From positions 1 through 61,290 of IMG/VR virus record IMGVR_UViG_3300017788_000026: a stretch of DNA of 61,290 nucleotides. The stretch is one strand, 5' to 3'. A model generated the notes under the pieces. It saw only the letters and a program-made list of their open reading frames with translations. It was not told the DNA's origin and ran no database searches. Within the stretch, counting starts at the first letter, position 1. Each line of letters begins with the position of its first letter. Made by a program: the position numbers and the translations under genes. Of the stretch, positions 6,993 through 61,176 are shown one piece after another. This DNA comes from a virus (taxonomy: Duplodnaviria; Caudoviricetes).

Positions 6993-7032
6993 CTTCTTAT
7001 GACAACTTACAGCCCTTTTTTGTCATAAGAAG
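6993..7032. promoter_or_regulatory. Divergent pair of GTCATAAGA promoter-like motifs (13-bp inverted repeat)
   Basis: CTTCTTATGACAA (6993-7005) and TTGTCATAAGAAG (7020-7032) between divergent gene blocks. Confidence 0.7.
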
Positions 7033-7106
7033 CGTATGAATAGAGTTATTCGGTATTGCTACACGTGTAGTGAGCACATTGATCCTAGAGATCCAGCGAG
7101 CCACAA

Positions 7107-7352
7107 ATGCCTTCTGGTAATCGTGCACAAGTAACCCTTTATTTAAACGTCGATGGTGACGATATAACAGTATCTAAGGTTCTTGATCACGTAGAATCAA
7201 AAGCCGTAGCTATTGCAGAGATGACAAGGATGACCCTTAAAATGTTCAAGGGTTGTGTAGTCATAGTAGACGTGGAGGCCGCCCTGTGGTGCCACGACTG
7301 TGACTACGACGAAAAAGACAAACCTAAACCGAAAGTGTGTAACTGTGTTTAA
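7107..7352 (+). CDS. Small hypothetical protein with CxxC/CxC
   Basis: 81-aa ORF. Confidence 0.55.
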   Translation: MPSGNRAQVTLYLNVDGDDITVSKVLDHVESKAVAIAEMTRMTLKMFKGCVVIVDVEAALWCHDCDYDEKDKPKPKVCNCV

Positions 7353-7692
7353 TGTTTTTGATGGAAGTTGGGTCAACAAGGGCTGGCAATGCCCCGTTTG
7401 TGGCGCTGTGTTCGCGCCCCACGCTTATCAGTGTTCGAACTGCGTCCCGTATAAGTCTGTTACAACAGATAAGATAGTGCCTTTACAGCCTGTCCCCGAG
7501 AAACCTGTGCCTGGTACTACAGCACCTATTTACTATCATAGAGCGTGTACCAAGTGCGGTCATTTGAGACCACCTGATCAGCTCGATGTAAACGGTGCGT
7601 GCGCTGGGTCGTGTAGCCTGCCATATATCCCAGGAACTCCAGGGCCGACCGTGATGTGGCGCACGCCCTCTAGTACCGCCAGGTCTCTTTGA
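7300..7692 (+). CDS. Small zinc-finger protein (start probably near 7346)
   Basis: GWQCPVCGAVFAP...CSNC and a second CTKC...C. Confidence 0.6.
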   Translation: MTTTKKTNLNRKCVTVFNVFDGSWVNKGWQCPVCGAVFAPHAYQCSNCVPYKSVTTDKIVPLQPVPEKPVPGTTAPIYYHRACTKCGHLRPPDQLDVNGACAGSCSLPYIPGTPGPTVMWRTPSSTARSL

Positions 7693-7946
7693 TCCCCATA
7701 CTATTTTACTCGCCGTATTGCAACATCTGCCCTGGAGTCATAACCAGGGCAGTTGAATACTTTAATCAAAAAGGTATAACCTTGATGATAAGAATGCCGA
7801 CAGCTAAGGACAAAACCTATGTAAAGGGAGTACCGGCCCTATTCGTTCCAAAAGAACTAGGTGCTTTTGATGCTTCCTATCTGCTTATCGGCGAACAGAT
7901 ACCGGACTGGCTCCACAACATGACTGATAAAATCAAATGTCGATAA
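7689..7946 (+). CDS. Thioredoxin/glutaredoxin-like protein
   Basis: FYSPYCNICP CxxC motif and VKGVPAL cis-Pro motif. Confidence 0.65.
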   Translation: MIPILFYSPYCNICPGVITRAVEYFNQKGITLMIRMPTAKDKTYVKGVPALFVPKELGAFDASYLLIGEQIPDWLHNMTDKIKCR

Positions 7947-9403
7947 AGATCATAACAGCCGCTCTGCCAGTCGCTTTTGTTGGAACCGCGTATTCTGTTA
8001 GGGCACAAACCCGAGGAGCAGAAACAGGAAATCTGACTTGGGGAGCCGTGGGATTACCCACCGGCTTTTCTTTTAGTTCAGCGGGTGTTTTATCGGCTTT
8101 ATCAGGAGCTCTAACCGGAACCTCAGTGGGGATTTACCCCATCACCATCTCCGTAAATGACACGGTTACAACGGATCAAGTATCTTTTGATTTAACAGTG
8201 CGTCCCGCGGAATACCTCCGCGCCCGCCCGCTTGTCTTAGACCCCAGACTAGAGAGCCTTCTAAACCTATACGAAATAGGCGGCCTCACAAGAGAAGAAG
8301 TAACTGCTCACTTTCGCGGCCGCGCCCATCCATCAATACTTCTAGAATCCCCACACAGTTACGCAGCAGATAAACTAGTCCACTCAGCATCTGATATATC
8401 TTTTGAGGACATATCCGCGTCACCCGTCGGCTCACCTGATACACGTTCAGTAAAAGATGTAATAATTGATCTCATAAACAATACCTCAGTAATAACCGTA
8501 GATTCACTATCTGATAGCTTAGATATCTATACAGGCTTAGTGTCCAACGCCCACCAATTCCGCGGCCTCCGCCAAGGCGCCAATGTTAACATAGAGGCAA
8601 CCCAAAACGATCTAAGAGTATCCTATCTAGCCTCATCAGTTCCCGCCGCCCACACCGCTGGTATTAGTAACTCACTATCATCAGATATACTACCAACACT
8701 ATCTTTACCAGGCGATTGGCGCGCAGGAAATCAAGACGCGAGCCCTGATACTCCAAGCATATCTCCTATAGCAATAAATCATAACGGCGCTCACCTATAT
8801 CCATGCGGTACATTCAGCGCCTACGATCTAAAGAGATATCCCCACAACGGACATAGAAGAATAGCTGGCGAATCCATAGCCTCACATAGTGGATTCTATG
8901 GATACGCTGATGGCTATCATATCGCCCCTGAAGCAATAGCTGGTAAGACGCTTCAATTCGTAGCTAGAGGCAGAGTCAAAATAGTACGTCCTGATACGTT
9001 CATTGAGTTCGTATTCGAGCCCGATGTACGCCTCTCGCCGCCCGTACACTCACCTTCGCCCTCAGTTGATCAAAGAATGGTCTTCTTTAGTGATGAGGTG
9101 GGTGTATCTTGGAGCGATGATACATACAGACCATGCGAGTTCTCAGGCACCGTCACATTCAGTAATTACAACTCATGGCAATGGTCAGGTTTGTTCACAA
9201 TAACCGGTCTGTCTGGCCAAGTAATCATGAGCCGCCTAGTTAGTGGCTCAAAAACTGATTCGAACTTCAGCTATCTAGACGGCGCCTTACTAGGTATCCG
9301 CTATAGAATTGATTGCATAGCTAATAAGCACATCTGGAATAACACGTTCCAAGGAATAGGTAACGAGCTCCGCTGGAATCACTTCATGATAGGGCCTCAA
9401 TGA
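7937..9403 (+). CDS. Virion protein with N-terminal putative Ig (He_PIG-like) domain
   Basis: LPVAFVGTAYS...GLPTGFSFSSAGVLS...YPITISVND. Confidence 0.65.
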   Translation: MSIKIITAALPVAFVGTAYSVRAQTRGAETGNLTWGAVGLPTGFSFSSAGVLSALSGALTGTSVGIYPITISVNDTVTTDQVSFDLTVRPAEYLRARPLVLDPRLESLLNLYEIGGLTREEVTAHFRGRAHPSILLESPHSYAADKLVHSASDISFEDISASPVGSPDTRSVKDVIIDLINNTSVITVDSLSDSLDIYTGLVSNAHQFRGLRQGANVNIEATQNDLRVSYLASSVPAAHTAGISNSLSSDILPTLSLPGDWRAGNQDASPDTPSISPIAINHNGAHLYPCGTFSAYDLKRYPHNGHRRIAGESIASHSGFYGYADGYHIAPEAIAGKTLQFVARGRVKIVRPDTFIEFVFEPDVRLSPPVHSPSPSVDQRMVFFSDEVGVSWSDDTYRPCEFSGTVTFSNYNSWQWSGLFTITGLSGQVIMSRLVSGSKTDSNFSYLDGALLGIRYRIDCIANKHIWNNTFQGIGNELRWNHFMIGPQ

Positions 9404-20704: not shown

Positions 20705-20921
20705 GTGGTTCCAACTCTACGATTATGTCCTTAATCAACCATACGTCCACTATATCAGATCGAGCTATTCTGGGCAGGCGGATCGGCGTTCCATAGGCGA
20801 TGTGTGTGTCATCTATGATGTAGAAGTCCTCAGGATAGTCGGGAACAAAACCCTCGTCGAAAAACAGGTCTATGATTTCATATATCTTATGACGCGTGTC
20901 TTCGCTTATTTTTCCCCCCAA
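20679..20921 (-). CDS. Microprotein, array B
   Basis: FDEGFVPD; likely TTG start. Confidence 0.6.
   Translation of the reverse strand: MGGKISEDTRHKIYEIIDLFFDEGFVPDYPEDFYIIDDTHIAYGTPIRLPRIARSDIVDVWLIKDIIVELEPHVAAQTER
20885..20893 (-). promoter_or_regulatory. GTCATAAGA motif (intragenic)
   Basis: GTCATAAGATATATG matches consensus. Confidence 0.45.
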
Positions 20922-22568: not shown

Positions 22569-22780
22569 GATACAACCGCGGTTCTTATGCCCATTATAGG
22601 TACGCGTCTAGTGTGCTCGCTGAGTATGGGGCCACAAACAGGACAATCGCTGTTTGCGAAGGACTTTGTTAGTATAATCTCGCGGGTTTGTTTGTCCCAC
22701 GTCACGTGAAAGAAATCACCCCTGTAGAATCTCTTTTCTACCACTTCGGTAATAATGTGATCAGAGAGATGGGTTGTCAT
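22565..22780 (-). CDS. Microprotein, array B
   Basis: VEKRFYRG; CPVC. Confidence 0.6.
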   Translation of the reverse strand: MTTHLSDHIITEVVEKRFYRGDFFHVTWDKQTREIILTKSFANSDCPVCGPILSEHTRRVPIMGIRTAVVS

Positions 22781-29122: not shown

Positions 29123-29289
29123 GTGTGACTCCTTTTTGATAGGGGGACTTGCATATATCTTATGCCATATTTGTTAACGTATTTGAGTATAAAGTCAGAG
29201 AACTCTGAAGGCAGGCCCGGCACTATGAAGAGAGACATGTTTTTTCTAATAAGATCAAGAATAATATTGTTTGCTGTTTGCGGGTTCAT
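29074..29289 (-). CDS. Microprotein, array B
   Basis: NMSLFIVP. Confidence 0.5.
   Translation of the reverse strand: MNPQTANNIILDLIRKNMSLFIVPGLPSEFSDFILKYVNKYGIRYMQVPLSKRSHTCVLDYGPSCWRSYHW
29158..29186 (-). promoter_or_regulatory. GGCATAAGA promoter-like motif
   Basis: CAAATATGGCATAAGATATATG 36 nt before hydrolase start. Confidence 0.65.
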
Positions 29290-29960: not shown

Positions 29961-30241
29961 AGAGGGAACAGCTCCTCTACTTCGCTGTCGTGTGGATTGA
30001 CAGGAAGGTCTAGTTCCATCTCAACCACTTCGTCTAGAATAAGGGTTCGGCACTCGACGATTTCTCGAAAAGAGCTTAAAAGTAGATTGTGCGGCGTGCC
30101 GTTTTGTGCGGCCGTACTGATTTGTCTATACGTGTCGCTAAGAGGGGCGCACGCCGCGGCCACGACGTTCTCTTTTTGCATCGCGCGGGCCAACATGATA
30201 TCGAAACTGTCCATGGTTTCCATCAATACCTTATGACGCAT
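29957..30241 (-). CDS. Microprotein, array B (real start probably downstream of the promoter motif)
   Basis: First codons overlap GTCATAAGG motif at 30229-30237. Confidence 0.55.
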   Translation of the reverse strand: MRHKVLMETMDSFDIMLARAMQKENVVAAACAPLSDTYRQISTAAQNGTPHNLLLSSFREIVECRTLILDEVVEMELDLPVNPHDSEVEELFPL

Positions 30242-30638: not shown

Positions 30639-30647
30639 TCTTATGAC
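30639..30647 (-). promoter_or_regulatory. GTCATAAGA promoter-like motif heading the 18.6-30.6 kb island
   Basis: TTGTCATAAGATAC at divergent junction. Confidence 0.65.
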
Positions 30648-42244: not shown

Positions 42245-42253
42245 TCTTATGAC
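42245..42253 (-). promoter_or_regulatory. GTCATAAGA promoter-like motif heading the 39.3-42.2 kb island
   Basis: TGTCATAAGAC at divergent junction. Confidence 0.65.
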
Positions 42254-42275: not shown

Positions 42276-42593
42276 ATGTCTAAACAACAAGAGCTGACCC
42301 AGAGGATAAAAGCTGGCCTAGCCGCCCGCCTGTCTGAGAAACTAGCTGTTGCGCGCCATATCCCCAGAGATACCTTGGTGGCTAGCGGATCAAAAATGCG
42401 CATAGAGTTGCTTAACCTAAACCGACCAGACGACCTGGCCCGATGGCAGACGCTGCATAACGATGTTGATAGATATCGAATCATAAATGAGAAAGAATCT
42501 CATCAAAAAGGCGAGTACTTTGTTCGTATAATATACAATGAGCTAGGTGACGATCTACCTACGGTCAAGACACAGGAACAGCTAAGAGAGTAA
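42276..42593 (+). CDS. Small protein coupled to RNAP gene
   Basis: TAATG overlap with RNAP start. Confidence 0.7.
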   Translation: MSKQQELTQRIKAGLAARLSEKLAVARHIPRDTLVASGSKMRIELLNLNRPDDLARWQTLHNDVDRYRIINEKESHQKGEYFVRIIYNELGDDLPTVKTQEQLRE

Positions 42594-45500
42594 TGGGACA
42601 ATACGAATCATTCATCGCGGCCACTCGGCTAACGGAAAAAATTCTAAAAGAGGCCTTTCCGATAAAAGGTAAGCTGCACACAGTAGAGGCTACTAACCTG
42701 GCTTGGAGCGGCATAGGGAGAGATATAGCTCGTGACCTTAAGACTCAAAAGAAGTACAAGCTAGAGGACCGTTCATTAGTTGCCAATTTGACAGGTGATG
42801 TGCGTATTATAGACAACAAGACAAGCAAGGTGCTTGATTCTAGAAGTAAGCATGTCTTGCTGCAACTACCTCATATAACAGAACGCGGATCCTATATCCT
42901 ACAAGGTACCGAGCGGCAGGTTATCAACCAGCTACGCTGGCGCCCAGGCATATACGCCAGCTTCACGCCGGATAACAACGTGAAGGTTGTGCTTAACACC
43001 TCGGCCGCCGGTACTTACCAAGTGATGCTAGATAGAGAATCACTGGTGACCACCTTCCGTGTAGGAACCACCACTAACTTTCCTATATATTCGGTACTCG
43101 TCGCAGTAGGCCTAAATGACGTTGAGATAAAGACGCTCCTAGGACAGAAGATGTACGATGTCAACAGGGCTAAAGCTAAGCCGGATATAGACATCGGTAA
43201 ACTACTCAAGAAGCTCCGTCCTTACGCCACCGCCGGTTCTGTAGAAGAGAGAACTAAGCTAGTCAAGGAGTTCTTGGAATCAAAGCCACTGGACCCCGAA
43301 GTCAATAAGGTTACCATAGGCGAGGCCGTTTCTTTTATCGGAAGAGATGCTCTCATAGCTGCTGTTAAGAAAGCCATCGATCTAGGTAACGGCCGTGTAG
43401 AAGAAGACGACGTAGAGTCTCTTGCCTTCAAGGCGTTGTTATCTTTTGAAGACTTCATCGCCGAGCGGCTAATCATTGCCGTACCGAACATTAAGAAGCA
43501 GGTGGCTAATTTAGCGGACAGAAAGCCCCAGATACTTTTCGCGCTGCCGCCCTCGACGTTCACTAACGTCATAGAGAACTTCTTCACTAAATCAGAGTTC
43601 ACGCGTCACGCGGACCAGAACAATCCTATAGACATAGCTGCGGTTAACTCGCTAGTCACCACTATGGGTGAAGGCGGTATCCAGAGCTCTCATGCCGTTA
43701 CCGACGAACTCCGTACTATTCACCCGTCGCACTTAGGTCTTCTTGACCTAATGCATACGCCGGAAGGTCAGAAGATCGGTGTTACCAACCACCTATCCTT
43801 AGGAGCGAAGCGTATAGGCACCTCTTTGGCCCTAACGGTCTACGAGGCAAAGACAGGTAAAAAGGTAGAAAAGACTATCCAGGAGATAGTGAACAAGGTA
43901 ATCGCGTTCCCTGATCAGTACGACAAGTTGGGTTCTGGGGTGCCTGTTCCCCGCTCGTCCGAAGTAAAGGTTCGTGTAGGTAACGCGTACAAGACGGTCA
44001 AAGCTTCTCAAGTAGAGTACATCTTCAGCAGCCCAGACGCCTTCTTCTCTACTACCACAACAGCGATCCCGTTCTTACCTAATAACCACGCTAACCGCGT
44101 GTTGATGGGTGATAAACATATTGAGCAATCAGTGCCTTTGGCAGACCCAGACAAACCGCTGGTTATGCACAGAATAACCTCCTCTGATGCTTCAGGTCGT
44201 CGGGTAGGTGGATACGAGGAATTATTCGGACACGCCTTCGTGGTGAAGGCTCCTGTAAGCGGTAAGGTCACTAAGGTGACTAATGAGGCCATATTCATTA
44301 AGCCCGCAAAAGGCCGCGCTGTTGAGGTGGCTATACACCACCACTACCCGCTAAACTCTGGAGCGTTCCTGCATGATACACCCAAGGTTAAGGCAGGTGA
44401 TTCAGTAAAAGAGAATCAGGTTCTGGTGGAGAACAACTTTACTAAGGACACTACTCTGGCTATGGGCAAGAACCTGTTAGCCGGTTATGTCGCTTACAAG
44501 GGGTACAACTTCGAGGACGGCATCGTTATATCGGAGACCGCGGCGAAGAAACTGACCTCTATTCACAAAAACGAGTCGCGCGTAGATATTGATAAGAACA
44601 CCAAGGTCGGCGCGGACTTCTATTTCGCCGCCTTCCCTCAAGAGCTTAAATACATCAGAGAGCGCAAGGCTCGTTATGACGAGGCTGGTATCATAAAGAA
44701 GGGCGCGACTGTTGAGCCCGGAGACATATTGATTCCTGCGTTCCAGCAAGTGCCGCTACACGCAGAGTTCGACTTTAAGCGCCTTGGTAAGCGTCTTGGG
44801 GACCGTGCTGTCGACATCTCCGCTAGGTGGGATAGTCTGGTTCCTGGAGAAGTGGTGGATGTTGTAAAGACCGGCTCTTTTGTGAAGGTGTATGTGAAGT
44901 CTGTGGAGCCTATGAAAATAGGCGACAAGCTTTGTTTTACACCAGACCACGACGTGCTCACTGTCGATGGCTGGAAACCTGTAGGAGACATTGTTATGAC
45001 CGACGTCATAGCAACCCTACGAGAAGGCCTGGGTGTCTTAGAGTACCACACCCCCACAGAGATATTCTCGTATGACTGTGTCGAAGAGCCCATGTACCAT
45101 CTTGAGACGCAACAATTGTCTATGATGGTCACTATGGACCATCGTCTGTACGTTAATCGTAGAGACCGCCTAACCTACGAACTTTTACCGGCTAGAGACG
45201 TGATGGGCAAACGAGCCCGGTTTAAGAAAGACGCGGTCTGGTTAGCAGAGCCGCCTGAAACGCTGCTTGGATTCGAGCCTACCGATTTTTGTCGTCTAAT
45301 AGGCTTTTTTGCTGCAGAAGGTAGCCTGACCAAAACGGACTATCGGGTCACACTGCATCAAATTAAGGAAGAGGGGCGTCAATGGGTACAGGCACTTCTC
45401 AAGCGGCTAGGTATTAAATACAGTGTTTTGAAAGACAGATTCAATATATATAGTAAGAAACTGTACGAGTTTTTCTCTTTATTTGGTAGATATGCCTGGC

Positions 45501-48500
45501 TAAAAAAACTACCGACACAGCTACTGCTTCTTGACAAAGAGCGTCTGCAGGCCATTTATGAGGGTTTCCTAATCGGTGATGGTACGGTAAACAACAGCGG
45601 CTCAGAAATACTCATAACAACCAGCCCTGTACTAGCGGATCAATTTCAGGAGATCGCGCTTAAGTGCGGCTGGTCGGCTAATATTAAGAAACTCCCTATA
45701 GACCCTAACCCGAAGTATATTGGAAGCCAGGTTCTTTATCAGCGGCACGAGACCTATCACGTTCGGATTGTGAAAGGCAAGTGCCGTCCTCAGATAAATC
45801 ACGGGCATGTAAAGAAACAGCACGCCCAGACTGAGGAGACGGTGCCGTACACAGGTAAAGTACATTGTATAAATGTACAGAATCATATCATCTATGTTCG
45901 GAGAAACGGCAAGCCGCATTGGAGCGGTAATTCTATGCGGGCAGGAGCCAAGGGCATTGTCACGCACATTCTTCCTGATGAGGAGATGTACAAGACAAAA
46001 GAAGGCAAGGTCTTGGATATTCTGCTGAACCCGGCTGGTATACCTAGCCGCGTCAACACAGGGCAGATGTACGAGGCTGCTACAGGCAAGATTGCCCTTA
46101 AAACCGGCAAGCCGTACTACACGGATAATTTCAACTCGCGCGCCCCGTCCATGCTTACTAAGGTAAGGCAGGACATGGCGGCAGCCGGCGTGGTGGACGA
46201 AGAGGAGATTGTCGATCCTAAAACAGGGTCGGTTATTTCCAGCACACTAGTTGGTCCGATACATTTTTACAAGCTAAAGCACCAAGTAGATACTAAGTTT
46301 AAAGCACGCTCTACTGTGGATGAAAGCTACTCATTAGACCAGGCCCCGGCTAAGACAGATGAGAGCTCTGCTCAGCGAATAGGTATGTTGGATACCTTCT
46401 CGTTGTTATCAGGTAACGCCACTTCGTTCCTTAATGATAGCTTCGGGCTAAAATCACAGAAGAACGACGAGTACTGGATCGCTCTGCAAAAGGGACAAAT
46501 ACCGCCGCCGCCTAAGGTGCCGTTCATCACAGAGAAGTTTGTAACAATGCTTCTTGGTGCGGGAATCAACTTGCGTCAGTCAGGAACCAAGTTCGTGGCC
46601 GCGCCGCTTACTGACAAAGAGATCCTCGCCATGTCTCATGGTGAGATAGAGAAGCCGTTGGCTCTGAAGTCCAACAACCTAATGCCGGAGAAGGGCGGAT
46701 TGTTCGATCCTGTAAAGACAGGCGGCATAGACGGCAATCGGTTTAATCACATATCATTGGCTACGCCGATACCTAATCCATTGATGCTTAAGGCCATCGT
46801 TTCAGTGGCTAGACTACCTAAGGCGGAAAGCCTTACTGCCATTCTAGATGGTTCGCTAGCAGTAACCCCCGATGGTAAAATAACTAAAGAGCTCGATACC
46901 GGAGCCGCTGGCGGAGCCGGTGTTGTAAATCTGTTAAAGAACATAAATGTTAAAAAAGAGCTTACACGAACACTGGCTGAAACAAAGACAGCTAAGAAGG
47001 ATCAGCTAGATAAGGCGTATAAGCGCTTGAAGTATTTACGCGCACTGGATCAACTCAAGCTGACTCCAGAAGAAGCGTATACTAACAATTACGTGCCTAT
47101 CATACCTACGAAGTTCCGGCACATTCAGCCTAGAATGGACGGCTCGCTGAACGTATCGGCACCTAACTTCGGGTATAGAGAAATTATTCTGATCAACAAC
47201 CAGCTCAAGAAGCTGCAAAAAGCCGGCATAGATCAGACGAATCTCAAAAAGCTAAACAGTGATTTGTTCAAAGCTGTTAGCGGTTTAACCGGCGCAACCG
47301 CTCCGCTAACCAGAGCTGGAGAGGTGTCTGGTTTCATAGAGAAGATCAAAGGCACTTCTCCTAAGATGGGTCTCTTCCAGTCTAAGGTGCTTACCAGAGC
47401 GCAAGACCTGTCCGCTAGATCTACTGTAATACCTAACCCTAAATTTGGGTTGGACGAGATTGGTTTGCCGACAGATATGGCGCTCACCATCTACAAGCCT
47501 TTCGTAGTGCGGCGCCTAGTTAATATGGGATATGATCCATTAACAGCGCGTCGTTTAGTGGAGACTAAGGACGAGTTGGCGTTACGCGTTCTTGAGCTAG
47601 AGTCCAGAGATCGCCCGGCTATTATGAACAGAGCGCCATCACTCCATAAGTTCAACCTACAGGCGTTCCGCCCTCGATTGACGGACGGGCGCGCGGTAGA
47701 GGTAAACCCGCTGATTGTCGCAGGATTCAACATGGACTTCGACGGTGACACCGCGGGTATCCACGTTCCTGTGTCTGAAGAAGCGCGCAAAGAATCTCTA
47801 GAAAAGCTGCTGCCTAGTAAAAACCTGTTGTCGGTTCGCGATGGTTCCGCTATGCACGCCCCTACTAAGGAAACGGCGTACGGTGTGTATCTAATGTCTG
47901 CGCCTAAGGGAACACCTGTGCGGTTCAAGTCAAAAGAAGACGTGCTACAGGCGCATCTGCAGAACAAGATAAAGGTCAACACCGCCGTCACTGTAGGGGG
48001 CGTAACCACCTGCGCCGGTCAATATCTCATAGACTCTTTATTCCCGAAAGAGCTGAAGCCCGGCTTACAGCCTATGACGGCCGGTCGCATGAATGATGCG
48101 ATCACCGCCGCAGCTCGCGGGCTCAAGTCAGAAGAAGCAGCCAGCATCATAACTAAACTGAAGGACCTGGGTAACCACTACGTTACCGAGATCGGCTTTA
48201 CCGTGTCTCTCAAAGACCTTGAGGTGGATTCTTCAAAGAGAAACGCCATCCTAGACAAGGCTAAGAAAGCCGTGTCGTCTATAGGATTTAGCGCCGCGGC
48301 AGGTAACGCCGCAAAAGAGATTGGCGCTCTAGTAAAATCAACAACAGAGAACCGATTTGTCGATGCTGCTATAACATCAGGCGCGTTGGGTAAGGGTGGT
48401 ACGCTGGCTCAAATGATCGCTACTCCGGTGGCGGTTGAGGATCACAGAGGCAACCCAGTGCCTATGTTTATTGAGAACTCCTATGCCGAGGGGCATGACC

Positions 48501-49669
48501 TAGGCTCGTACATAGCCACCACGCCGGGCGCTAGAAAGGGTCTAATCGACAAAGGCCTGTCTGTAGGTGAGACCGGCTACTTCAATAAGCAGGTAGTGAA
48601 TTCAGCTATTGAGTACACCATTAAGGAAGCTGACTGTAAATCCGGCGTTGGTAACACAATGCCGTTAACATCTCCTGAGATATACGACCGCTTCATCGCT
48701 TCAGGTCCGTACAGAAACAAGCTGGTTACTCCAGAGTTCGCGCGGCAGCTGATAGCAAAGGGTAAGAAAAACGTTATTGTACGCTCACCCATAACATGTC
48801 AGACAATCGGCGGCGTGTGCCAGAAGTGCTTTGGTTTAGATGAGACAGGCAAGCTACCGCCTATAGGCCTCCATATTGGAGCACTGGCGGGACAGACGCT
48901 AGGCGAGCGCGCGACCCAGATTACGCTAAAAGCCTTCCACAGCGGTGGTAGCGTTGGCGGTCCCAAGCTAGGCTTCGAGCGTATCCAGGAGCTAGTTAAC
49001 TTGCCCCAGAACGTAAAGAACAAAGCCACGCTGGCTTCTGTATCCGGTGCCGTCTCCAAGATAGAAGAATCCCCGGCCGGTGGTTGGTTCGTGTATGTGA
49101 AGACAACTAAGCACTATATACCTAAAGAACTAGGCCTGGGCGTAAAGATGCGCCAGGTAGTCAAAGCCGGCGATAAGCTTTCAAGTACCGGGTCAGTTAA
49201 GCCTCAAGAGCTACTAGAGTATACGGGGAGCCTGAACACTGTCCGTAACTTCCTAGTTGACGAGCTGGCTAGAAACTACAGCCGCGAGCAGGGCGCGTAC
49301 GTTAATCGCAAGATTGTGGAAACAGTTGTTCGCCCGTTGACTGATAAAGCAAAGGTGACCGACGCTGGTGGCGCCTTAGAGAGCTTCGGGGTTGTTCCTG
49401 GAGATATCTTATCGGTCAACTCGGTTAAGAATTACAACAGACGGCTTCGTTCAGCTAAAAAGAATGAGATCAAGTTTGAGCCTACATTAGTAGGTATCAA
49501 GACAGCGCCGCTGCTCGGACAAGATTTCGTAGGTGCGCTAGCTCACGAGCGGTTAAAAGAGACGCTAATGAAGGCGCCTGCCTTGGCTCTGTCTACGGAC
49601 ACTGAGAAAGGCCACCCGGTAGCCACTCTTGCACTAAAGAACCTGAGACAGGTGTCCACTGGTAAATGA
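42593..49669 (+). CDS. rpoBC: Fused beta-beta' multi-subunit-type DNA-directed RNA polymerase with intein
   Basis: GTERQVINQL, TPEGQKIG, GYNFEDG, GDKL/SMRAGAKG, NPAGIPSR, YKLKHQV; NRAPSLH, NMDFDGD, RKGLID, TQITLKAFHSGG. Confidence 0.95.
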   Translation: MGQYESFIAATRLTEKILKEAFPIKGKLHTVEATNLAWSGIGRDIARDLKTQKKYKLEDRSLVANLTGDVRIIDNKTSKVLDSRSKHVLLQLPHITERGSYILQGTERQVINQLRWRPGIYASFTPDNNVKVVLNTSAAGTYQVMLDRESLVTTFRVGTTTNFPIYSVLVAVGLNDVEIKTLLGQKMYDVNRAKAKPDIDIGKLLKKLRPYATAGSVEERTKLVKEFLESKPLDPEVNKVTIGEAVSFIGRDALIAAVKKAIDLGNGRVEEDDVESLAFKALLSFEDFIAERLIIAVPNIKKQVANLADRKPQILFALPPSTFTNVIENFFTKSEFTRHADQNNPIDIAAVNSLVTTMGEGGIQSSHAVTDELRTIHPSHLGLLDLMHTPEGQKIGVTNHLSLGAKRIGTSLALTVYEAKTGKKVEKTIQEIVNKVIAFPDQYDKLGSGVPVPRSSEVKVRVGNAYKTVKASQVEYIFSSPDAFFSTTTTAIPFLPNNHANRVLMGDKHIEQSVPLADPDKPLVMHRITSSDASGRRVGGYEELFGHAFVVKAPVSGKVTKVTNEAIFIKPAKGRAVEVAIHHHYPLNSGAFLHDTPKVKAGDSVKENQVLVENNFTKDTTLAMGKNLLAGYVAYKGYNFEDGIVISETAAKKLTSIHKNESRVDIDKNTKVGADFYFAAFPQELKYIRERKARYDEAGIIKKGATVEPGDILIPAFQQVPLHAEFDFKRLGKRLGDRAVDISARWDSLVPGEVVDVVKTGSFVKVYVKSVEPMKIGDKLCFTPDHDVLTVDGWKPVGDIVMTDVIATLREGLGVLEYHTPTEIFSYDCVEEPMYHLETQQLSMMVTMDHRLYVNRRDRLTYELLPARDVMGKRARFKKDAVWLAEPPETLLGFEPTDFCRLIGFFAAEGSLTKTDYRVTLHQIKEEGRQWVQALLKRLGIKYSVLKDRFNIYSKKLYEFFSLFGRYAWLKKLPTQLLLLDKERLQAIYEGFLIGDGTVNNSGSEILITTSPVLADQFQEIALKCGWSANIKKLPIDPNPKYIGSQVLYQRHETYHVRIVKGKCRPQINHGHVKKQHAQTEETVPYTGKVHCINVQNHIIYVRRNGKPHWSGNSMRAGAKGIVTHILPDEEMYKTKEGKVLDILLNPAGIPSRVNTGQMYEAATGKIALKTGKPYYTDNFNSRAPSMLTKVRQDMAAAGVVDEEEIVDPKTGSVISSTLVGPIHFYKLKHQVDTKFKARSTVDESYSLDQAPAKTDESSAQRIGMLDTFSLLSGNATSFLNDSFGLKSQKNDEYWIALQKGQIPPPPKVPFITEKFVTMLLGAGINLRQSGTKFVAAPLTDKEILAMSHGEIEKPLALKSNNLMPEKGGLFDPVKTGGIDGNRFNHISLATPIPNPLMLKAIVSVARLPKAESLTAILDGSLAVTPDGKITKELDTGAAGGAGVVNLLKNINVKKELTRTLAETKTAKKDQLDKAYKRLKYLRALDQLKLTPEEAYTNNYVPIIPTKFRHIQPRMDGSLNVSAPNFGYREIILINNQLKKLQKAGIDQTNLKKLNSDLFKAVSGLTGATAPLTRAGEVSGFIEKIKGTSPKMGLFQSKVLTRAQDLSARSTVIPNPKFGLDEIGLPTDMALTIYKPFVVRRLVNMGYDPLTARRLVETKDELALRVLELESRDRPAIMNRAPSLHKFNLQAFRPRLTDGRAVEVNPLIVAGFNMDFDGDTAGIHVPVSEEARKESLEKLLPSKNLLSVRDGSAMHAPTKETAYGVYLMSAPKGTPVRFKSKEDVLQAHLQNKIKVNTAVTVGGVTTCAGQYLIDSLFPKELKPGLQPMTAGRMNDAITAAARGLKSEEAASIITKLKDLGNHYVTEIGFTVSLKDLEVDSSKRNAILDKAKKAVSSIGFSAAAGNAAKEIGALVKSTTENRFVDAAITSGALGKGGTLAQMIATPVAVEDHRGNPVPMFIENSYAEGHDLGSYIATTPGARKGLIDKGLSVGETGYFNKQVVNSAIEYTIKEADCKSGVGNTMPLTSPEIYDRFIASGPYRNKLVTPEFARQLIAKGKKNVIVRSPITCQTIGGVCQKCFGLDETGKLPPIGLHIGALAGQTLGERATQITLKAFHSGGSVGGPKLGFERIQELVNLPQNVKNKATLASVSGAVSKIEESPAGGWFVYVKTTKHYIPKELGLGVKMRQVVKAGDKLSSTGSVKPQELLEYTGSLNTVRNFLVDELARNYSREQGAYVNRKIVETVVRPLTDKAKVTDAGGALESFGVVPGDILSVNSVKNYNRRLRSAKKNEIKFEPTLVGIKTAPLLGQDFVGALAHERLKETLMKAPALALSTDTEKGHPVATLALKNLRQVSTGK
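44933..45931 (+). mobile_element. Intein with LAGLIDADG homing endonuclease (333 aa)
   Basis: Starts CFTPDHDVLT, block B VTMDH, LIGFFAAEG and YEGFLIGDG, ends WSGN followed by Ser; interrupts GDKx-xR.G.KG. Confidence 0.92.
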
Positions 49670-56065: not shown

Positions 56066-56134
56066 ATATCTTATGACGTATTTAGGGAGTGGTTTTGAGG
56101 TAAAAAGAAACCCCCGGCATAGGAGGTTTCTCTT
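56066..56134 (-). promoter_or_regulatory. Terminator-promoter spacer unit 1
   Basis: Hairpin plus T tract, then CCTCAAAA..CCCTAAATACGTCATAAGATAT. Confidence 0.75.
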
Positions 56135-56145
56135 GTACTTACTAC

Positions 56146-56691: not shown

Positions 56692-56767
56692 ATATCTTAT
56701 GCCTTATTTAGGGAGTATTTTGGGTAAAAAGAAAGGCCTTTTGGCCCTTCTTCTTTATCAGCCGCTC
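56692..56767 (-). promoter_or_regulatory. Terminator-promoter spacer unit 2
   Basis: GAAGGGCCAAAAGGCCTTTC-T5, then CCCTAAATAAGGCATAAGATAT. Confidence 0.75.
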
Positions 56768-57429: not shown

Positions 57430-57807
57430 TCACACACCGCGCCGGATTTTTGGGTCGTAGAGACCCACCATCCCGCGCTCAACCAGCGCTCTCGCAGAGA
57501 ACTGCGCGCAGGCTTTCGGTGGGCCTACCACCTTACCGACGAGTGACGTCGCGAGTGCTGCGGCTTGTTCGGCGCTCAGCCACTCCATCACGAGGCTTGG
57601 AGCGAGCACGTTGGCGAGGAACTTTCCTCGTTTGCGCTTCTCTTCCAAGCACCGCAGATTCCATCCGAGATAGTCGAAGCGCTCGTGATTTGAGCACCCG
57701 ACACAATCGCAATGTGCAGACCTGGTGAGCCGTGTTCGCGCCGCCCTGCCGCCGCATACCCAGCACGGATATAGCGCGAGGGCTTCGTCTGCGTTCATAA
57801 CTCTCAT
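57430..57807 (-). CDS. Hypothetical zinc-binding protein
   Basis: PCWVCGG...CDCVGC. Confidence 0.6.
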   Translation of the reverse strand: MRVMNADEALALYPCWVCGGRAARTRLTRSAHCDCVGCSNHERFDYLGWNLRCLEEKRKRGKFLANVLAPSLVMEWLSAEQAAALATSLVGKVVGPPKACAQFSARALVERGMVGLYDPKIRRGV

Positions 57808-57863
57808 GAGGTATTTTCCATTAAGGTGTTTTGAGCAAAGACGACGTGCCTCCGCTTCAGTTA

Positions 57864-57892
57864 TCTTATGCCATGTTTGGGTGCTGTTTTAG
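57864..57892 (-). promoter_or_regulatory. GGCATAAGA promoter-like motif
   Basis: CTAAAACAGCACCCAAACATGGCATAAGATA. Confidence 0.7.
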
Positions 57893-57950
57893 CGACTAAA
57901 CAAAGTTATCCTTGCCTCAGATACCTTATGCTATTTTCTCTAGTCATTCT

Positions 57951-59738
57951 ATGTCAAAAAACACGTTCGATATAAGGCTCGACTCTCCCACAGTAGCTTT
58001 GCTTGAGGAGCTGGCCTCGCAAGAAAAGATTGATTGGGGCGCCTACAATAAGGTCGCAGAAGAGGTAGCTAACGATGCGCCCGAGGTTACAGAAGGGTTA
58101 CCTGACGCGGCGGTACTTCGTACATTAAGTGACATAGTCGCTAACTATCTAACTGTGGACCAGCAGCCGTTCTCTTTTGAGGGCCGCGAATATATGAAGG
58201 GGCTGTATGACTATGTCGTAGAGTATCCCACCGGGTGCAGGAATCAAATATGGCATACCGGAAGACAGGTCGAGAAAAGCACGTCACAGTCCGCTAAATC
58301 AATTGCTCTAGGAATAGCGAATCCAGCGTACAAGACATTATACATCGCCCCTAGATTTGACCAGGTAACCGTTTTCTCACAACAGCGCTTTAAGCCAATG
58401 TGTGAAGACTCCTATAAGCTATGGGATACGATCATTAACCCACACCGCACCTTGTGGCAGGTAGGCGCGAAACAGTTCCTAAACGGCGCGTTCTTTAATT
58501 TTAGATCGTGCTATCTAAGCGCGGATAATGCGCGTGGTATCTCCGCCCACCACCTTATGATCGACGAGATACAGGACATTGTATCAGATGCCGTGCCTAT
58601 TTTGGAGCAGTGCCAATCCCACGCTCTCAAAGAGCTAAAGTTCAATTCATACGCCGGAACCCCTAAGACAAACAGTAACGTAATCACTAGGCGTTATAAG
58701 AATAGCTGTCAATTTGAGTGGCTAGTCCCTTGTGGGTGCGGGCACTGGAACCTTCTAGACGATTCGGTAATAGGCCCCACGTTTTTCCAATGCATCAAAT
58801 GTTCACGGCCTATTAACGTTCGTGAAGGGCAGTGGGTGCCTGCCCGTCCTGAACTATTGAACAAATGCTGGGGTTTCCGCATACCCCAGATCATGGTGCC
58901 GTTTAAAGAGCACGCGGATATATTGGCGCTAAAGAACGACCCACAAGTAAGCCGCAGACAATTCTTTAACGAGTGTCTTGGTTTACCTTATGACGAAGGT
59001 GAGCTTGTTCTAACAGAAAAAGACCTTATAGAGGCCGCGGCTGCAGGAGATGGTAGCGGTATGTGGACACCGCACCAAGGAAGAATGGCCGCCCGCAACG
59101 GGCTACGCCTTTTCATGGGTGTGGACTACGGAACTGCTGAAGGAGAGAAGCCGTCATTTACCGTAGTGACTGTAGGCTTCTTCACTCCATTAGGCAAATT
59201 TAGTGTTGTCTATATGGAGAAGTTTGTAGGCGAGAAAGCTAACCTGGCCGCGCAGCCTGCTTATATTGATCAATTAGCCAGCGCATTTGGTGTAACCTGG
59301 ATGGGCTGTGACTGGGGATTCGGGGCGCCGCTTAATCAAAGACTGGTTGACGAATACGGCTGGCCTCGATACGATGCTTCGCGTCTTTTACTAGAATACC
59401 AGTACGTAAAGCAGGGATTACTAGCTAAGTGGAATCCCCAAGCGCAGCGGTACATGATTGATAGAAACCAATCTATGACCAATCTGATCGATGATATACG
59501 AAATAAGAAGGTCACCTTTTTCAAGTACGAGCAGCTACGCCCGTTCGTTCTTGACTTTACGTCGATCTTTATCGAGTTTGATGATAATCGTGGTTCTATG
59601 AAATACGACCATGAGCTGCCTGATGATGCGTTCCATTCTTTGAACTACGCCTATATGGCGGGGCTACAGTACCACGGTAAGCTGGTGTTGACAGGGCTTC
59701 CCGACGCCGGTAATGATGATATGCCTTATATAGAGTAA
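57951..59738 (+). CDS. terL: Terminase large subunit (lambda gpA-like)
   Basis: Walker A GRQVEKST, Walker B LMIDE, GTP coupling motif, PCGC..CIKC, nuclease MGVDYG and DDAFHS. Confidence 0.9.
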   Translation: MSKNTFDIRLDSPTVALLEELASQEKIDWGAYNKVAEEVANDAPEVTEGLPDAAVLRTLSDIVANYLTVDQQPFSFEGREYMKGLYDYVVEYPTGCRNQIWHTGRQVEKSTSQSAKSIALGIANPAYKTLYIAPRFDQVTVFSQQRFKPMCEDSYKLWDTIINPHRTLWQVGAKQFLNGAFFNFRSCYLSADNARGISAHHLMIDEIQDIVSDAVPILEQCQSHALKELKFNSYAGTPKTNSNVITRRYKNSCQFEWLVPCGCGHWNLLDDSVIGPTFFQCIKCSRPINVREGQWVPARPELLNKCWGFRIPQIMVPFKEHADILALKNDPQVSRRQFFNECLGLPYDEGELVLTEKDLIEAAAAGDGSGMWTPHQGRMAARNGLRLFMGVDYGTAEGEKPSFTVVTVGFFTPLGKFSVVYMEKFVGEKANLAAQPAYIDQLASAFGVTWMGCDWGFGAPLNQRLVDEYGWPRYDASRLLLEYQYVKQGLLAKWNPQAQRYMIDRNQSMTNLIDDIRNKKVTFFKYEQLRPFVLDFTSIFIEFDDNRGSMKYDHELPDDAFHSLNYAYMAGLQYHGKLVLTGLPDAGNDDMPYIE

Positions 59739-59768
59739 AAAGAAAGGCCTTTTGGCCCTTCTTTTTTT
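59737..59768. terminator. Bidirectional terminator with the same core as spacer unit 2
   Basis: AAAAAGAAAGGCCTTTTGGCCCTTCTTTTTTT. Confidence 0.8.
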
Positions 59769-59780
59769 CATCAGCCGCTC

Positions 59781-60434
59781 TTACGCGACCTTCTCCGCCT
59801 CTTCCGCCCAGATTGTGATGGCTAGGGTGAGTACGGTGACGCCCGCGGCGGCCCTCGCGGCGTTCGCGTAATTCGCAGCGTCACTCACGTACAGCGCGGC
59901 GTTACTCACGTACAGCGCGGCGCGACTCGCGGCGTGACTCGCGTTCTTCGCGGCCTTCGCGGCGTTACTCACGTACAGCGCGGCGCCCCTCGCGTACAGC
60001 GCGGCGTTACTCGCGGCGTTACTCGCGACCCTCGCGGCGTCAAGATCCTTCGCTTGCTCGCACGCGAGCACCAGCGCTTCGTCGAGCTTCGCCGCTCGCA
60101 GCGCGATGGGCAGAATCTCCCGCACGGTACGCAGCGCCACTCCCTGCGCCCACGCCGCTCGCTTCGACGCGCTCCACGCTGGCCAGGCCTCAAGCAGCGG
60201 CGCAAGCCGCAGCATCTGCTCGGTGCGTGTCGCGTCGTCAGACCACGCCGCGTCGTTTAGCGACCGCACGTCCGGCCGGTCAAGCACAAGCGGGCTGTCC
60301 GTCCACTCGCGCCCCTCGCACACCGATACCGCTTCCAGGAGGCAGCATTTGCCTGATTTGGCGTCGTGTGAGCCTGCGCTAAGCCCTCCGTAGCGGTTGA
60401 TGACTGCTGTCAGGGATTCTTTTGTACAAGACAC
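59781..60434 (-). CDS. Ala-repeat cassette protein, copy 2
   Basis: GTG start after AAGGAGG; paralog of copy 1; AALYVSN repeats. Confidence 0.8.
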   Translation of the reverse strand: MSCTKESLTAVINRYGGLSAGSHDAKSGKCCLLEAVSVCEGREWTDSPLVLDRPDVRSLNDAAWSDDATRTEQMLRLAPLLEAWPAWSASKRAAWAQGVALRTVREILPIALRAAKLDEALVLACEQAKDLDAARVASNAASNAALYARGAALYVSNAAKAAKNASHAASRAALYVSNAALYVSDAANYANAARAAAGVTVLTLAITIWAEEAEKVA

Positions 60435-60482
60435 GTGTTTTTTCCTCCTTCGTTGTTTTGGTAAGATACTATTTCGCCTCAA

Positions 60483-60568
60483 ATATCTTATGCCTTATTT
60501 AGGGGGTCAATTTGAGGTAAAAAGAAAGGCCTGTGGTGCAGGCTTTTCTTTTTTTAATCAGGCCGCTC
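60483..60568 (-). promoter_or_regulatory. Terminator-promoter spacer unit 3
   Basis: Hairpin plus T tract, then CCTCAAAT..CCCTAAATAAGGCATAAGATAT. Confidence 0.75.
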
Positions 60569-61093
60569 TTATGCGACCTTTTCCGTCTCCTCGGCCCAGA
60601 TTGTGACGGCTAGGGCGAGTACGGCGTAACTCGCGGCGGCATCCGCAGCATCACTCGCGTACCTCGCGGCGTTCGCAGCGGCCCTCGCGGCGTTCGCAGC
60701 GTCCCTCTCGACGTTCGCGCGCCCCGCGGCGGCACCCGCAGCATCACTCGCGTACCTCGCGGCCCTCGCAGCGTCCCTCTCGACGTTCGCGTGCCCCGCG
60801 GCGGCACCCGCGGCAGCACCCGCGGCGTCAAGATCCTGCGCCTGCTCGCACGCGAGCACCAGCGCCTCGTCGATCTTCGCCGCGCGCAGCGCGATCGGTA
60901 GAATCTCGCGCACGGTGCGCAGCGCGACAGCTTGAGCCCAATCGGCCCGCTGCCCATCGGTCCAGCCCAGCCACGCTTCGAAGAGCGGTACTAGCCGCCT
61001 CATTTGCTCCGTGCGCACGGAGTCGTCCGGCCACAGGGCGTCGCTTAGCGGGCGCATGTCGGGGCAATCGAAAGCACTTGTTGTCCAGGACAT
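60569..61093 (-). CDS. Ala-repeat cassette protein, copy 3 (N-terminally shortened)
   Basis: Lacks GGLSAGSH-C segment; duplicated ANVERDAA/RYASDAA blocks. Confidence 0.75.
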   Translation of the reverse strand: MSWTTSAFDCPDMRPLSDALWPDDSVRTEQMRRLVPLFEAWLGWTDGQRADWAQAVALRTVREILPIALRAAKIDEALVLACEQAQDLDAAGAAAGAAAGHANVERDAARAARYASDAAGAAAGRANVERDAANAARAAANAARYASDAADAAASYAVLALAVTIWAEETEKVA

Positions 61094-61144
61094 GTGGTTT
61101 TCTCCAGATAGGGGTTTTGGTAGGATACCTTATCCTTGCCTCAT

Positions 61145-61176
61145 ATATCTTATGCCATATTTAGACCCCGTTTTGG
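61145..61176 (-). promoter_or_regulatory. GGCATAAGA promoter-like motif
   Basis: CAAAACGGGGTCTAAATATGGCATAAGATAT. Confidence 0.7.

Follow-up and report, generated by a model that had tools for sequence, protein, structure and literature searches.

A putative phage-specific promoter motif of -10-type geometry in a virus encoding a fused beta-beta' RNA polymerase

A nine-nucleotide word, G(G/T)CATAAGA, heads all six minus-strand gene islands in the 61,290-nt stretch of phage DNA that was analysed, here called the window, which represents ~32% (about one third) of an estimated ~190-kb genome. Comparison with related phages gives good support to the view that the word is a phage-specific promoter. 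What reads it? We lean towards a reading in which the word forms the -10-type core of a class of promoters proper to the phage's own transcription machinery, i.e. the fused beta-beta' polymerase together with a phage sigma factor.

When both strands are searched, TCTTATGMC (coding strand G[G/T]CATAAGA) has 12 exact matches in the window, 11 on the minus strand and one on the plus strand, at 7022. In 100 dinucleotide-preserving shuffles the mean was 1.06 (sd 1.01) and the largest count six, so that 12 or more was reached in 0 of 100. The original prediction had named ten TCTTATG(A/C)C positions (6995, 20885, 29158, 30639, 42245, 56069, 56695, 57864, 60486 and 61148) and a reverse copy at 7022, and the exact two-strand count recovers them all. 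The two variants it listed, with minus-strand letters CTCATAAGA (20398-20406) and GTCATAAGG (30229-30237), also exist; the latter possibly has a very short leader or none. An additional copy, at 22583, was absent from its list. A weight matrix trained on 19 sites from two relatives only, none of them from the window, scores 11 of the 12 copies above a threshold of 14.7 bits, the 95th percentile of best scores in 20 random sequences. The remaining copy, 22583-22591, may be a chance occurrence (Table 1).

Table 1. Copies of the motif, the islands and genes downstream of them, and the polymerase locus in the window (downstream entries are islands unless stated otherwise).
Feature	Position	Strand	Matrix score (bits)	Downstream	Remarks
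Putative promoter core GTCATAAGA	6995..7003	-	22.0	4558-6956	GTG at 6956, 38 nt on
Sole plus copy GTCATAAGA	7022..7030	+	17.4	plus unit 7107-18579	76 nt upstream of unit
Putative internal promoter GTCATAAGA	20885..20893	-	19.7		within long array of small minus ORFs
Doubtful copy GGCATAAGA	22583..22591	-	<10		inside ORF; flanks misfit model
Putative promoter core GGCATAAGA	29158..29166	-	27.3	148-aa gene 28676-29122	35 nt before gene
Weak variant GTCATAAGG	30229..30237	-	13.7		below threshold; ATG 30223, 5 nt after
Putative promoter core GTCATAAGA	30639..30647	-	15.2	18621-30496
Putative promoter core GTCATAAGA	42245..42253	-	31.7	39321-42208	22 nt from divergent start of polymerase operon; orthologous site G001 40633
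Putative promoter core GTCATAAGA	56069..56077	-	23.9		ribosome-binding site begins 4 nt past core; terminator-like hairpin + T-run 56125-56111 just upstream
Putative promoter core GGCATAAGA	56695..56703	-	36.3		full extended consensus; window's best score
Putative promoter core GGCATAAGA	57864..57872	-	24.1	55898-57807	ATG 57807 at 56 nt
Putative promoter core GGCATAAGA	60486..60494	-	33.6	59781-60482	heads gene 59781-60434/60482; terminator-like hairpin 60543-60529 upstream
Putative promoter core GGCATAAGA	61148..61156	-	32.8	60569-61093	island is one gene; terminator-like site 61250-61231 upstream
Conserved 105-aa gene	42276..42593	+			directly upstream of polymerase gene
Fused beta-beta' RNA polymerase, 2358 aa, intein-bearing	42593..49669	+			Pfam Rpb2_6 (5e-46), Rpb1_2, Rpb1_5, Rpb2_3, others; PHROGs RNA polymerase families

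The claim that copies head every minus-strand island holds for 6 of 6 islands when strand blocks are combined with the list of open reading frames; the starts at 6956 and 57807 come from that list, and the gene caller missed both frames. The copies at 6995 and 7022 form a divergent pair. In eight copies the word lies 18-56 nt before the start codon, and the distance is longer at 30647 (142 nt), 20893 (180 nt, to the next called start) and 22591 (68 nt). By our own crude gene calls, ten of the 12 copies are intergenic, as against an intergenic share of 10.5% of the window. With the window and two relatives (G001 and G002) pooled, 26 of 31 copies are intergenic, where only 5-10% of those sequences is.

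Could the word be something other than a promoter? A regulator binding site or an RNA-leader element, such as a processing or translation signal, might merely accompany the 5' ends of genes. The strict orientation and the 18-56 nt spacing would suit such an element, as would the portions of the leader that are repeated among sites 57933, 60494 and 61156. This is hardly credible, however, as the divergent island heads need a promoter and no other conserved element is present; nor is the word palindromic, and the conserved A-rich patch and fixed-distance TG described below fit an initiation geometry. In addition, three sites of the window have a terminator-like hairpin upstream, ~20 nt from the word at 56077 and 60494 and ~60 nt from it at 61156, which leaves little space for any other promoter.

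In the layout of the clade, an A-rich patch precedes the first G of the word by 16-18 nt. The word itself, G-(G/T)-(C/T)-A-T-(A/G)-A-G-(A/T), is followed by four bases that vary, and then by TG, a ribosome-binding site and the start codon. Counted from the first G, T at +13 and G at +14 are found in 69-100% of sites (window, G001, G002, G004 and Salmonella phage Arash). On the same scale the A-rich patch occupies -18 to -16; it is most pronounced in the window, where 100, 92 and 75% of sites have A at these three positions. Both upstream A-tracts of the original prediction can be recognized, the first as AAA at these positions in 8 of 11 strong sites (two of the three bases are A in the other three) and the second as TAAATA at -9 to -4, limited to the strongest five or six sites. 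The predicted lack of TTGACA is likewise borne out, with 0 sites carrying it at promoter spacing on their own strand.

At window 56077, G001 24382 and G002 11139 the ribosome-binding site begins 4-6 nt past the word, which places the transcription start at or before about +14. On such spacing arguments the motif fits a sigma-type -10 element, with YATAAG as -12 to -7. This register would put the leading G at -14, the extended -10 position, the TG at -1/+1, i.e. a pyrimidine followed by a purine start, and the A-rich patch at about -32 to -30.

Might the word simply be an extended -10 promoter for the host holoenzyme with its primary sigma, one that has an A-rich element upstream and lacks a -35 box? 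Many phages have strong early promoters that the host enzyme reads, of the extended -10, TG-n-TATAAT-like kind. The Arash word, TGGTATAAG, occurs in many copies and is one base off TGnTATAAT; the upstream A-rich patch and the geometry are both in keeping with it, and the genes downstream are small and of early type. This reading is nevertheless quite improbable. G stands at -7 in all counted sites (the searched words themselves contain that G), whereas for the primary sigma no base is more conserved than T at -7, and searches of intergenic DNA for enriched words gave none with T there. Within the window's clade, -12 is invariably C. The nine-nucleotide word stays constant over the 11-27 sites of a genome, whereas host-read phage promoters scatter about their consensus, and it persists over genomes of 48-63% G+C in phages of Salmonella, Vibrio and freshwater hosts. 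Matches to a sigma-70-type consensus are at chance level, with 18 host-type promoters found in 41500-61290 versus 16.2 expected.

How far is the motif conserved? It heads non-structural gene blocks in relatives whose polymerases are 29-69% identical, including a cultured Salmonella phage and a Vibrio phage. G001 has 12 copies on the strand opposite the polymerase gene and one on the same strand; 8 of its 8 minus-strand blocks are headed by a copy, and the plus-strand copy at 4750 is the syntenic counterpart of window 7022. Counted in the same way, G002 has six and none, G006 seven and two, and G004 (63% G+C), searched with GKCATRAGT, 17 and one, which divide into eight and none for GKCATAAGT (expected 1.9) and nine and one for GKCATGAGT (expected 3.4). 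GGTATAAGW occurs in Salmonella phage Arash 26 times on one strand and once on the other, with 2.7 expected. In Vibrio phage D181, GKYATAAGW gives 25 and 3 by strand, and the reversed control word 10 and 5. Enrichment was sought without success in G003, G005, G007, G008 and G010, and in G009 it is no more than marginal. Since the same word, orientation and TG/ribosome-binding-site spacing recur in relatives with polymerases this diverged, the comparison of sequences supports well a phage-specific promoter. The original claim, an early promoter read by the phage's own beta-beta' polymerase, is supported in this part, and the polymerase is a plausible reader, but the label 'early' covers too little. 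The G001 block that holds primase, DNA polymerase, helicase and sigma has the motif at its head too, and the window copy at 7022 heads a plus-strand unit of large genes.

The fused polymerase has 53 related loci in IMG/VR. Its gene has the orientation of the structural and packaging genes and no motif copy ahead of it; within the window, its operon also encodes a PAAR protein and a second one that is glycine-zipper/P22 gp7-like, and in G001 the operon runs into the terminase gene. The 105-aa gene next to it has no Pfam family and is possibly an accessory subunit. A homologous frame occupies the same place in L001, L008, L003, L004 and L006, and in Arash the place is taken by gp205 (92 aa). A single Pfam-detectable beta/beta' set per genome is found in 3 of 3 relatives whose completeness is 95% or higher, and every motif-bearing relative examined also encodes a beta-beta' enzyme. 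Mass spectrometry of Arash virions, in the excerpted text of the paper, lists polymerase beta (with the most spectra), beta' and the sigma Gp10; the list is of 116 proteins, ribonucleotide reductases and RNA ligases included, and its authors note possible carry-over of abundant proteins (PMC10585845). The single Pfam-detectable polymerase per complete genome in the clade, the motif-free gene whose operon includes PAAR, ejection-type and terminase genes, and the three virion proteins in these excerpts make it plausible that the beta-beta' enzyme reads the motif.

Recognition would probably be by a phage sigma, since the clade encodes sigma-70-family factors and the motif has -10 geometry. The original prediction missed both of these features. 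Sigma70_r2 and Sigma70_r4 matches fall in one 280-329-aa open reading frame in G001, G002, G004 and G009, whose best solved relatives are RpoS and SigA (E ~1e-26). A second, divergent sigma is found in G004 and G009, and Arash carries two sigma genes, orthologous to both classes of the uncultured relatives. Neither gene lies in the window, with its ~32% of the genome; that the window's phage has them is to be expected from its relatives. In E. coli sigma-70 the base at -12 is read by two residues of region 2.4, which we take to be Q437 and T440. In the RpoS-like sigma these two are A and R in four genomes with C at -12 (G001, G002, G004 and G009), and Q and L/M in two with T at -12 (Arash and D181), a covariation that is one split on the tree and counts as one event, not six. 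The RpoS-like gene sits inside motif-headed blocks (G001), and for this reason its product, unless delivered, cannot be what first reads the motif. In Arash virions the reported sigma belongs to the other, divergent class. Two lines that lead to a sigma thus disagree, the region 2.4 covariation pointing to the RpoS-like factor and the virions to the divergent one.

A phage sigma could also redirect the host core polymerase to the motif, and the beta-beta' enzyme would then serve another class, e.g. the structural genes. The sigma-type geometry is equally compatible with this, and the intact regions 2 and 4 of the sigma genes and the covariation with the base at -12 speak for it as well. We regard it as unlikely, though as a serious alternative. 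Against it are the presence of the beta-beta' enzyme in all the motif-bearing relatives examined, the finding of no second conserved motif upstream of plus-strand blocks that could serve the phage enzyme, and the RpoS-like gene, whose location means that the motif must be read beforehand. Arash virions are also reported, in the same excerpts, to contain sigma and polymerase together (PMC10585845).

How might a system built on the phage's own polymerase work? A holoenzyme of the fused beta-beta' chain and a phage-encoded sigma-70-family factor would bind the motif and initiate 5-7 nt downstream of it. Its targets would be the non-structural genes, namely small-ORF arrays and nucleotide-metabolism genes, and in relatives also replication genes and one sigma gene. 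With G at -7, a position at which the host primary sigma requires T, and with C at -12, these promoters would be reserved for the phage enzyme. The polymerase may be made late, packaged and injected, and so start the next infection; the orientation of its gene with structural and packaging genes, and the lack of a motif there, suggest this.

Salmonella phage Arash (OQ632216.1) is the closest cultured relative with data. The word 'promoter' occurs 0 times in the Arash paper (PMC10585845). Arash shares with the window the motif family (27 copies of GGTATAAGW), the strand logic, the N4-TG spacing and, just upstream of the polymerase gene, a small gene. It differs in having T, not C, at -12 and a polymerase that is split in two genes (gp206 and gp216) rather than fused, with ~32% identity over 59% of the query.

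The consensus of the bacterial extended -10 promoter is TGnTATAAT. In the proposed register the motif has in common with it G at -14, A-T-A-A at -11 to -8, no need of TTGACA and the same distance to the presumed start. It departs from it in having G at -7 in place of the essential T, C at -12 (window clade) and an A-rich stretch upstream, not TTGACA. Phage sigma cascades that work on host polymerase, e.g. T4 gp55 at late promoters and SPO1 gp28 and gp33/34, resemble the proposed system in that a phage sigma defines a private non-host word and sorts the phage genes into classes. To our knowledge, phages with cascades of this type have no core polymerase of their own. The window's phage, in contrast, encodes a beta-beta' enzyme, and in Arash the polymerase is reported, in the excerpts cited, to be in the virion (PMC10585845).

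Early promoters of phiKZ/AR9-type jumbo phages that have their own polymerases also consist of a highly conserved ~10-nt word near -10, which can be detected by bioinformatic means upstream of operons presumed to be early; they are lineage-specific and tied to a phage-encoded multisubunit polymerase, and according to partial text of a review the word proved to be the virion-polymerase promoter wherever tested (PMC7598289). The polymerases in these phages are made up of four to five polypeptides, in virion and non-virion sets, and reportedly lack a sigma homologue, as stated in excerpts of two accounts (PMC7824862, PMC13282480). The window's phage, in contrast, has one fused beta-beta' chain, and its relatives two sigma-70-family genes; its motif, of just moderate AT-richness, resembles a sigma-type -10 element.

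The motif G[G/T]CATAAGA (TCTTATGMC on the complementary strand) is a real, non-random and conserved feature of these phages. The window holds 12 copies where 1.06 are expected, a number reached in none of 100 shuffles, and 11 of them are on the minus strand. The single plus-strand copy, at 7022, is the reverse copy of the original prediction, which gave all its motif positions correctly; one extra copy is found at 22583. A weight matrix made from 19 sites in two relatives only, with the 95th percentile of random best scores as threshold, recovers 11 of the 12 window copies. The 22583 copy fails, and the variant predicted at 30229 is present at its position with a sub-threshold score.

Genes in the window are arranged in strand blocks, plus and minus alternating. 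The claim that the motif stands at the head of every minus-strand island holds for all six islands, and three further copies are island-internal. Median ORF size per block is 146-1103 aa on the plus strand and 70-217 aa on the minus strand, where one block consists of 38 ORFs of ~74 aa each. Are the copies located between genes? The enrichment expected in intergenic versus coding DNA is seen: by our own crude gene calls, 26 of 31 copies in the window and two close relatives (G001 and G002) are intergenic, and intergenic DNA makes up 5-10%. Under a stricter ORF mask the intergenic copies are 8 of 12 in the window, 10 of 14 in G001 and 4 of 6 in G002.

The window is a whole virus record and represents ~32% of a complete genome by completeness estimate; complete or near-complete relatives are 183-193 kb in size. 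A sequencing-run search finds its sequence in three metagenomic DNA runs, of freshwater and sediment origin, and in no RNA run, and a megablast of positions 42000-50000 against the phage collection gave no match. Most ORFs other than those in the table below have no family match in PHROGs or Pfam. The 1858-aa and 1103-aa flanking proteins gave nothing by phmmer against solved structures, and the single protein atlas match for these large proteins (0.81) is in the chance range. At the contig end, positions 61190-61245 carry GGGGGTGTTT repeats, a 15-G run and a 12-A run, with the last motif copy just inside; the assembly probably broke at these repeats and homopolymer runs.

Features of the window and of related phages, with their coordinates
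Feature	Position	Strand	Size	Evidence or context
Fused beta-beta' RNA polymerase	42593-49669	+	2358 aa	Pfam Rpb2_3, Rpb2_6 (beta); Rpb1_1, Rpb1_2, Rpb1_3, Rpb1_5 (beta')
Insertion in polymerase, residues 781-1113	44933-45931		333 aa	contains LAGLIDADG_3 domain
Small gene	window 42276-42593; loci L001, L003, L004, L006, L008; Arash gp205		92-111 aa	always directly upstream of polymerase gene
PAAR protein	50778-51071	+		downstream of polymerase gene
Glycine-zipper/P22 gp7-like protein	53363-53770	+		downstream of polymerase gene
Terminase large subunit	57951-59738			PHROGs, Pfam
HD-domain YfbR-like 5'-deoxynucleotidase	26425-26949	-		in motif-headed block
cREC_REC-domain protein	39898-40491	-		in motif-headed block
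Divergent sigma-like protein	G004:C1:104938-105711 (L082:1354-2127); G009:C1:162136-162828			Arash gp10 orthologue

How widely is the motif conserved? In IMG/VR, 53 loci are related to the window polymerase, and several of the uncultured genomes carry the word or a close form of it, largely on the strand opposite to the polymerase gene. In G001, all eight minus-strand blocks are headed by a copy. The A-type word shows no enrichment in the more distant relatives G003, G005, G007, G008 and G010.

Motif forms in uncultured relatives, with copies on the strand opposite to and the same as that of the polymerase gene
Genome	Polymerase identity	Word	Opposite/same	Reversed word or expectation
G001	69%	GKCATAAGA	12/1	reversed word 1 and 3
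G002	65%	GKCATAAGA	6/0	reversed word 2 and 2
G004 (complete, 193 kb, 63% G+C)	55%	GKCATAAGT	8/0	expected 1.9 (analytic)
G004	55%	GKCATGAGT	9/1	expected 3.4
G006	49%	GKCATAAGW	7/2	expected 1.8
G009	48%	GKCATAAGW	4/2, weak excess	expected 2.5

Cultured phages extend the comparison. A protein search of the phage collection matches the polymerase to Vibrio phages D181, D148 and D69 (29% identity, 82% of query) and to Salmonella phage Arash (OQ632216.1; 32% identity, 59% of query). Word counts made de novo on the intergenic DNA of Arash brought out GGTATAAGA and GTATAAGTAA, a form with T at the third position. GGTATAAGW is present in 27 copies where 2.7 are expected, and 26 of these are opposite in strand to the terminase, portal and polymerase genes; GKCATRAG is not enriched in Arash (10 copies versus 32 for a control word). 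For D181, plain strand counts of GKYATAAGW are 25 opposite to the polymerase genes and three on the same strand, with a reversed control of 10 and 5. A second enriched word of the Arash intergenic regions, GGTTACAACGTTTG, contains the palindrome AACGTT and has 7 of its 10-11 copies between genes.

Repeated sequences are found next to several sites. The minus-strand leaders at 57925-57933, 60450-60480 and 61105-61140, 3' of three promoter copies, have in common the stretches TGAGGCAAGGATAA and TACCAAAAC, and the copy at 57872 has a degenerate extra motif copy, AGCATAAGG, ~55 nt on its upstream side; together these look like duplicated promoter-leader cassettes. In the high-G+C relative (G004), sites at 44623, 106312, 142256, 143923 and others have a repeated leader, ccggggatgtCTACCCC ... 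CACCACCCA, between motif and start codon, with no obvious Shine-Dalgarno match. A different host for this relative, considered from its ribosome-binding usage, was dropped (a 4-nt match in 45% of its genes versus 49-67% elsewhere).

What kind of signal is the word? With sites aligned on its first G, a downstream TG is prominent: T at +13 and G at +14 are found in 75 and 83% of sites in the window, 69 and 77% in G001, 100 and 83% in G002, 89 and 100% in G004, and 85 and 74% in Arash. Upstream, at -18 to -16, there is an A-rich patch (A in 100, 92 and 75% of window sites) that is strong in G001 and weaker elsewhere. At several sites a ribosome-binding site starts 4-6 nt past the word, which puts the latest possible RNA start at about +14. 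Two window sites, 56077 and 60494, have a terminator-like hairpin and T-run whose end is ~20 nt upstream of the word; at 61156 the nearest such hairpin is ~60 nt upstream. The motif is very probably a promoter core. If YATAAG is read as -12 to -7, the leading G would be position -14, the TG would span -1/+1 and the A-patch would lie near -31, and this spacing would be the geometry of a sigma-dependent promoter, in a register that we infer.

Could the host polymerase read such a promoter? The proposed -11 is an invariant A, as in a host element, and the proposed -7 is G at every counted site. T is absent at -7 in all words, and at -12 within the window clade. Host promoters need T at -7. A TTGACA-like -35 box, looked for 16-18 bp upstream of the -10, is likewise lacking, the only conserved feature there being the A-rich patch at about -32 to -30. 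It is likely that the motif is read by phage-encoded factors.

Host-type promoters were also considered for the plus-strand blocks and rejected, as sigma-70 consensus matches are at chance level (18 versus 16.2 expected at window positions 41500-61290). The sequence TTGTCT-N17-CATAAT before the polymerase operon is common to the window and G001; it overlaps the conserved minus-strand motif, and its conservation is therefore not counted as independent evidence. Several plus-strand starts have CATAAT or CATAAC at 2-10 nt upstream, a hint of a second promoter class for which the number of cases is too small.

Which core enzyme is used? A single beta/beta' set is detected by Pfam in each of the three relatives with a completeness of at least 95%. 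In the window and G001, the polymerase gene is never behind the motif and has the structural orientation: that of the window is followed by the PAAR and glycine-zipper genes, and that of G001 continues into the terminase gene. The G004 gene is part of a 30-kb plus-strand block in which the motif is absent. This gene context and the Arash data fit a polymerase that is made late and packaged. Use of the phage beta-beta' enzyme as the core at the motif, as the original prediction had it, is favoured with moderate confidence; its delivery in the virion and a strictly 'early' timing fall slightly short of an even prospect. A T7-like polymerase was also considered as reader, as the Arash word resembles the yeast mitochondrial promoter. 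A search for a gene of this family (PF00940) gave no match in five records (the window, G001, G004, G009 and Arash) and none in the control genomes, which do not carry the family either, so such a gene may have escaped detection.

The polymerase of the window has an insertion that splits the conserved beta motif GDK(L/I)-SMR(A/H)G at the hyphen. Its first residue is Cys and its last two are Gly-Asn, with Ser next in the chain, and it resembles an intein that carries a homing endonuclease. The polymerases of G001 and G004 lack it; that of G009 also has a split Rpb2_6 match. The small gene upstream of the polymerase belongs to no Pfam family, its stop codon often overlaps the polymerase start, and its product is a candidate accessory subunit.

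If the reader is sigma-dependent, which sigma factor is it? A sigma-70-family protein with regions 2 and 4 is found in G001, G002, G004, G009, Arash and D181, and none is encoded in the window, which is about one third of a genome. One class is RpoS/SigA-like (277-329 aa, regions 2 and 4), and in G001 its gene shares the strand of the motif and has replication genes around it. The other class, found in G004 and G009, is a divergent sigma of ~257 aa; its region 3 is above the Pfam cut-off, its region 2 is weak with the aromatic residues of region 2.3/2.4 replaced, and it has a C-terminal HTH. Arash has both: by E value, gp196 groups with the RpoS-like class (8e-12 versus 7e-5 in cross-comparison) and gp10 with the divergent class (1e-18 versus 0.016).

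At the two region 2.4 positions through which sigma-70 of E. coli contacts -12, the RpoS-like sigma has A and R in the four genomes with C at -12 (G001, G002, G004 and G009), and Q and L/M in the two with T there (Arash and D181). This covariation, across a single phylogenetic split, fits the RpoS-like sigma as reader of the motif. Its gene, however, lies inside motif-headed blocks without intergenic space of its own, so some form of the enzyme has to be at work on the motif ahead of this sigma's synthesis. The gp10 gene sits among structural genes, and in the portions of the Arash report considered here (PMC10585845) gp10 is listed in the virion proteome along with polymerase beta and beta', and gp196 is not among the virion proteins listed. 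The virion-associated sigma would fit the role of first motif reader, and either of the two sigmas may be the one that reads the motif. The end of the sole plus-strand copy in Arash (11588-11596) is 3 nt upstream of the gp9 start codon, and gp10 is the next gene; the gp9 mRNA may thus be leaderless, and gp10 may also be expressed from the motif.

A tentative overall reading, on the doubtful side when taken as a whole, is that these ~180-190 kb phages have a self-contained holoenzyme of the bacterial type. A single fused beta-beta' chain and phage sigma-70-family factors would be packaged in the virion and injected, and would read YATAAG as a -10 element orthogonal to that of the host, in which G takes the place of the host T at -7. 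The phage non-structural genes could then run independently of the host, and the two sigmas would form a cascade between motif-headed genes and the structural and polymerase genes. The -10-like word keeps A-T-A-A with both end bases swapped, and is conserved in a Salmonella phage as well as in phages from freshwater metagenomes. It would be a natural example of a sigma/promoter pair made orthogonal to the host, and might serve as a key by which transcription units can be annotated in a large phage group that has hardly any annotation. As Arash can be cultured, the system is directly testable. Outside supplements, the literature search turned up no published account of the motif, and the word 'promoter' occurs neither in the Arash paper (PMC10585845) nor in a paper on RNAP-encoding Caudovirales.

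How does this compare with known systems? Phage-encoded polymerases with promoters of their own are known from T7-type, N4-type and phiKZ/AR9-type phages. The last are closest in working: portions of one review (PMC7598289) describe a ~10-nt conserved word near -10 before early operons, read by the virion polymerase, and the present motif is likewise a ~10-nt word near the proposed -10, found bioinformatically before presumed early operons. According to portions of two other reviews (PMC7824862, PMC13282480), jumbo-phage polymerases of this type are split, duplicated and without sigma homologues; here, at the sensitivity of Pfam, there is one fused beta-beta' ORF per genome rather than two split sets, and the clade has sigma homologues. 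With its fused chain and sigma genes, the system thus matches the phiKZ/AR9 kind in working and departs from it in two defining features. There is also a likeness to phage sigma cascades, but those phages have no polymerase core of their own. The clade is distinct in having genuine sigma-70-family factors alongside a fused beta-beta' core of the bacterial type. If the reading is true, this would add a third type of early transcription by phage-borne enzymes to those of phiKZ-type phages, whose enzymes are split and sigma-less, and of N4 and crAss-like phages, whose enzymes are single chains.
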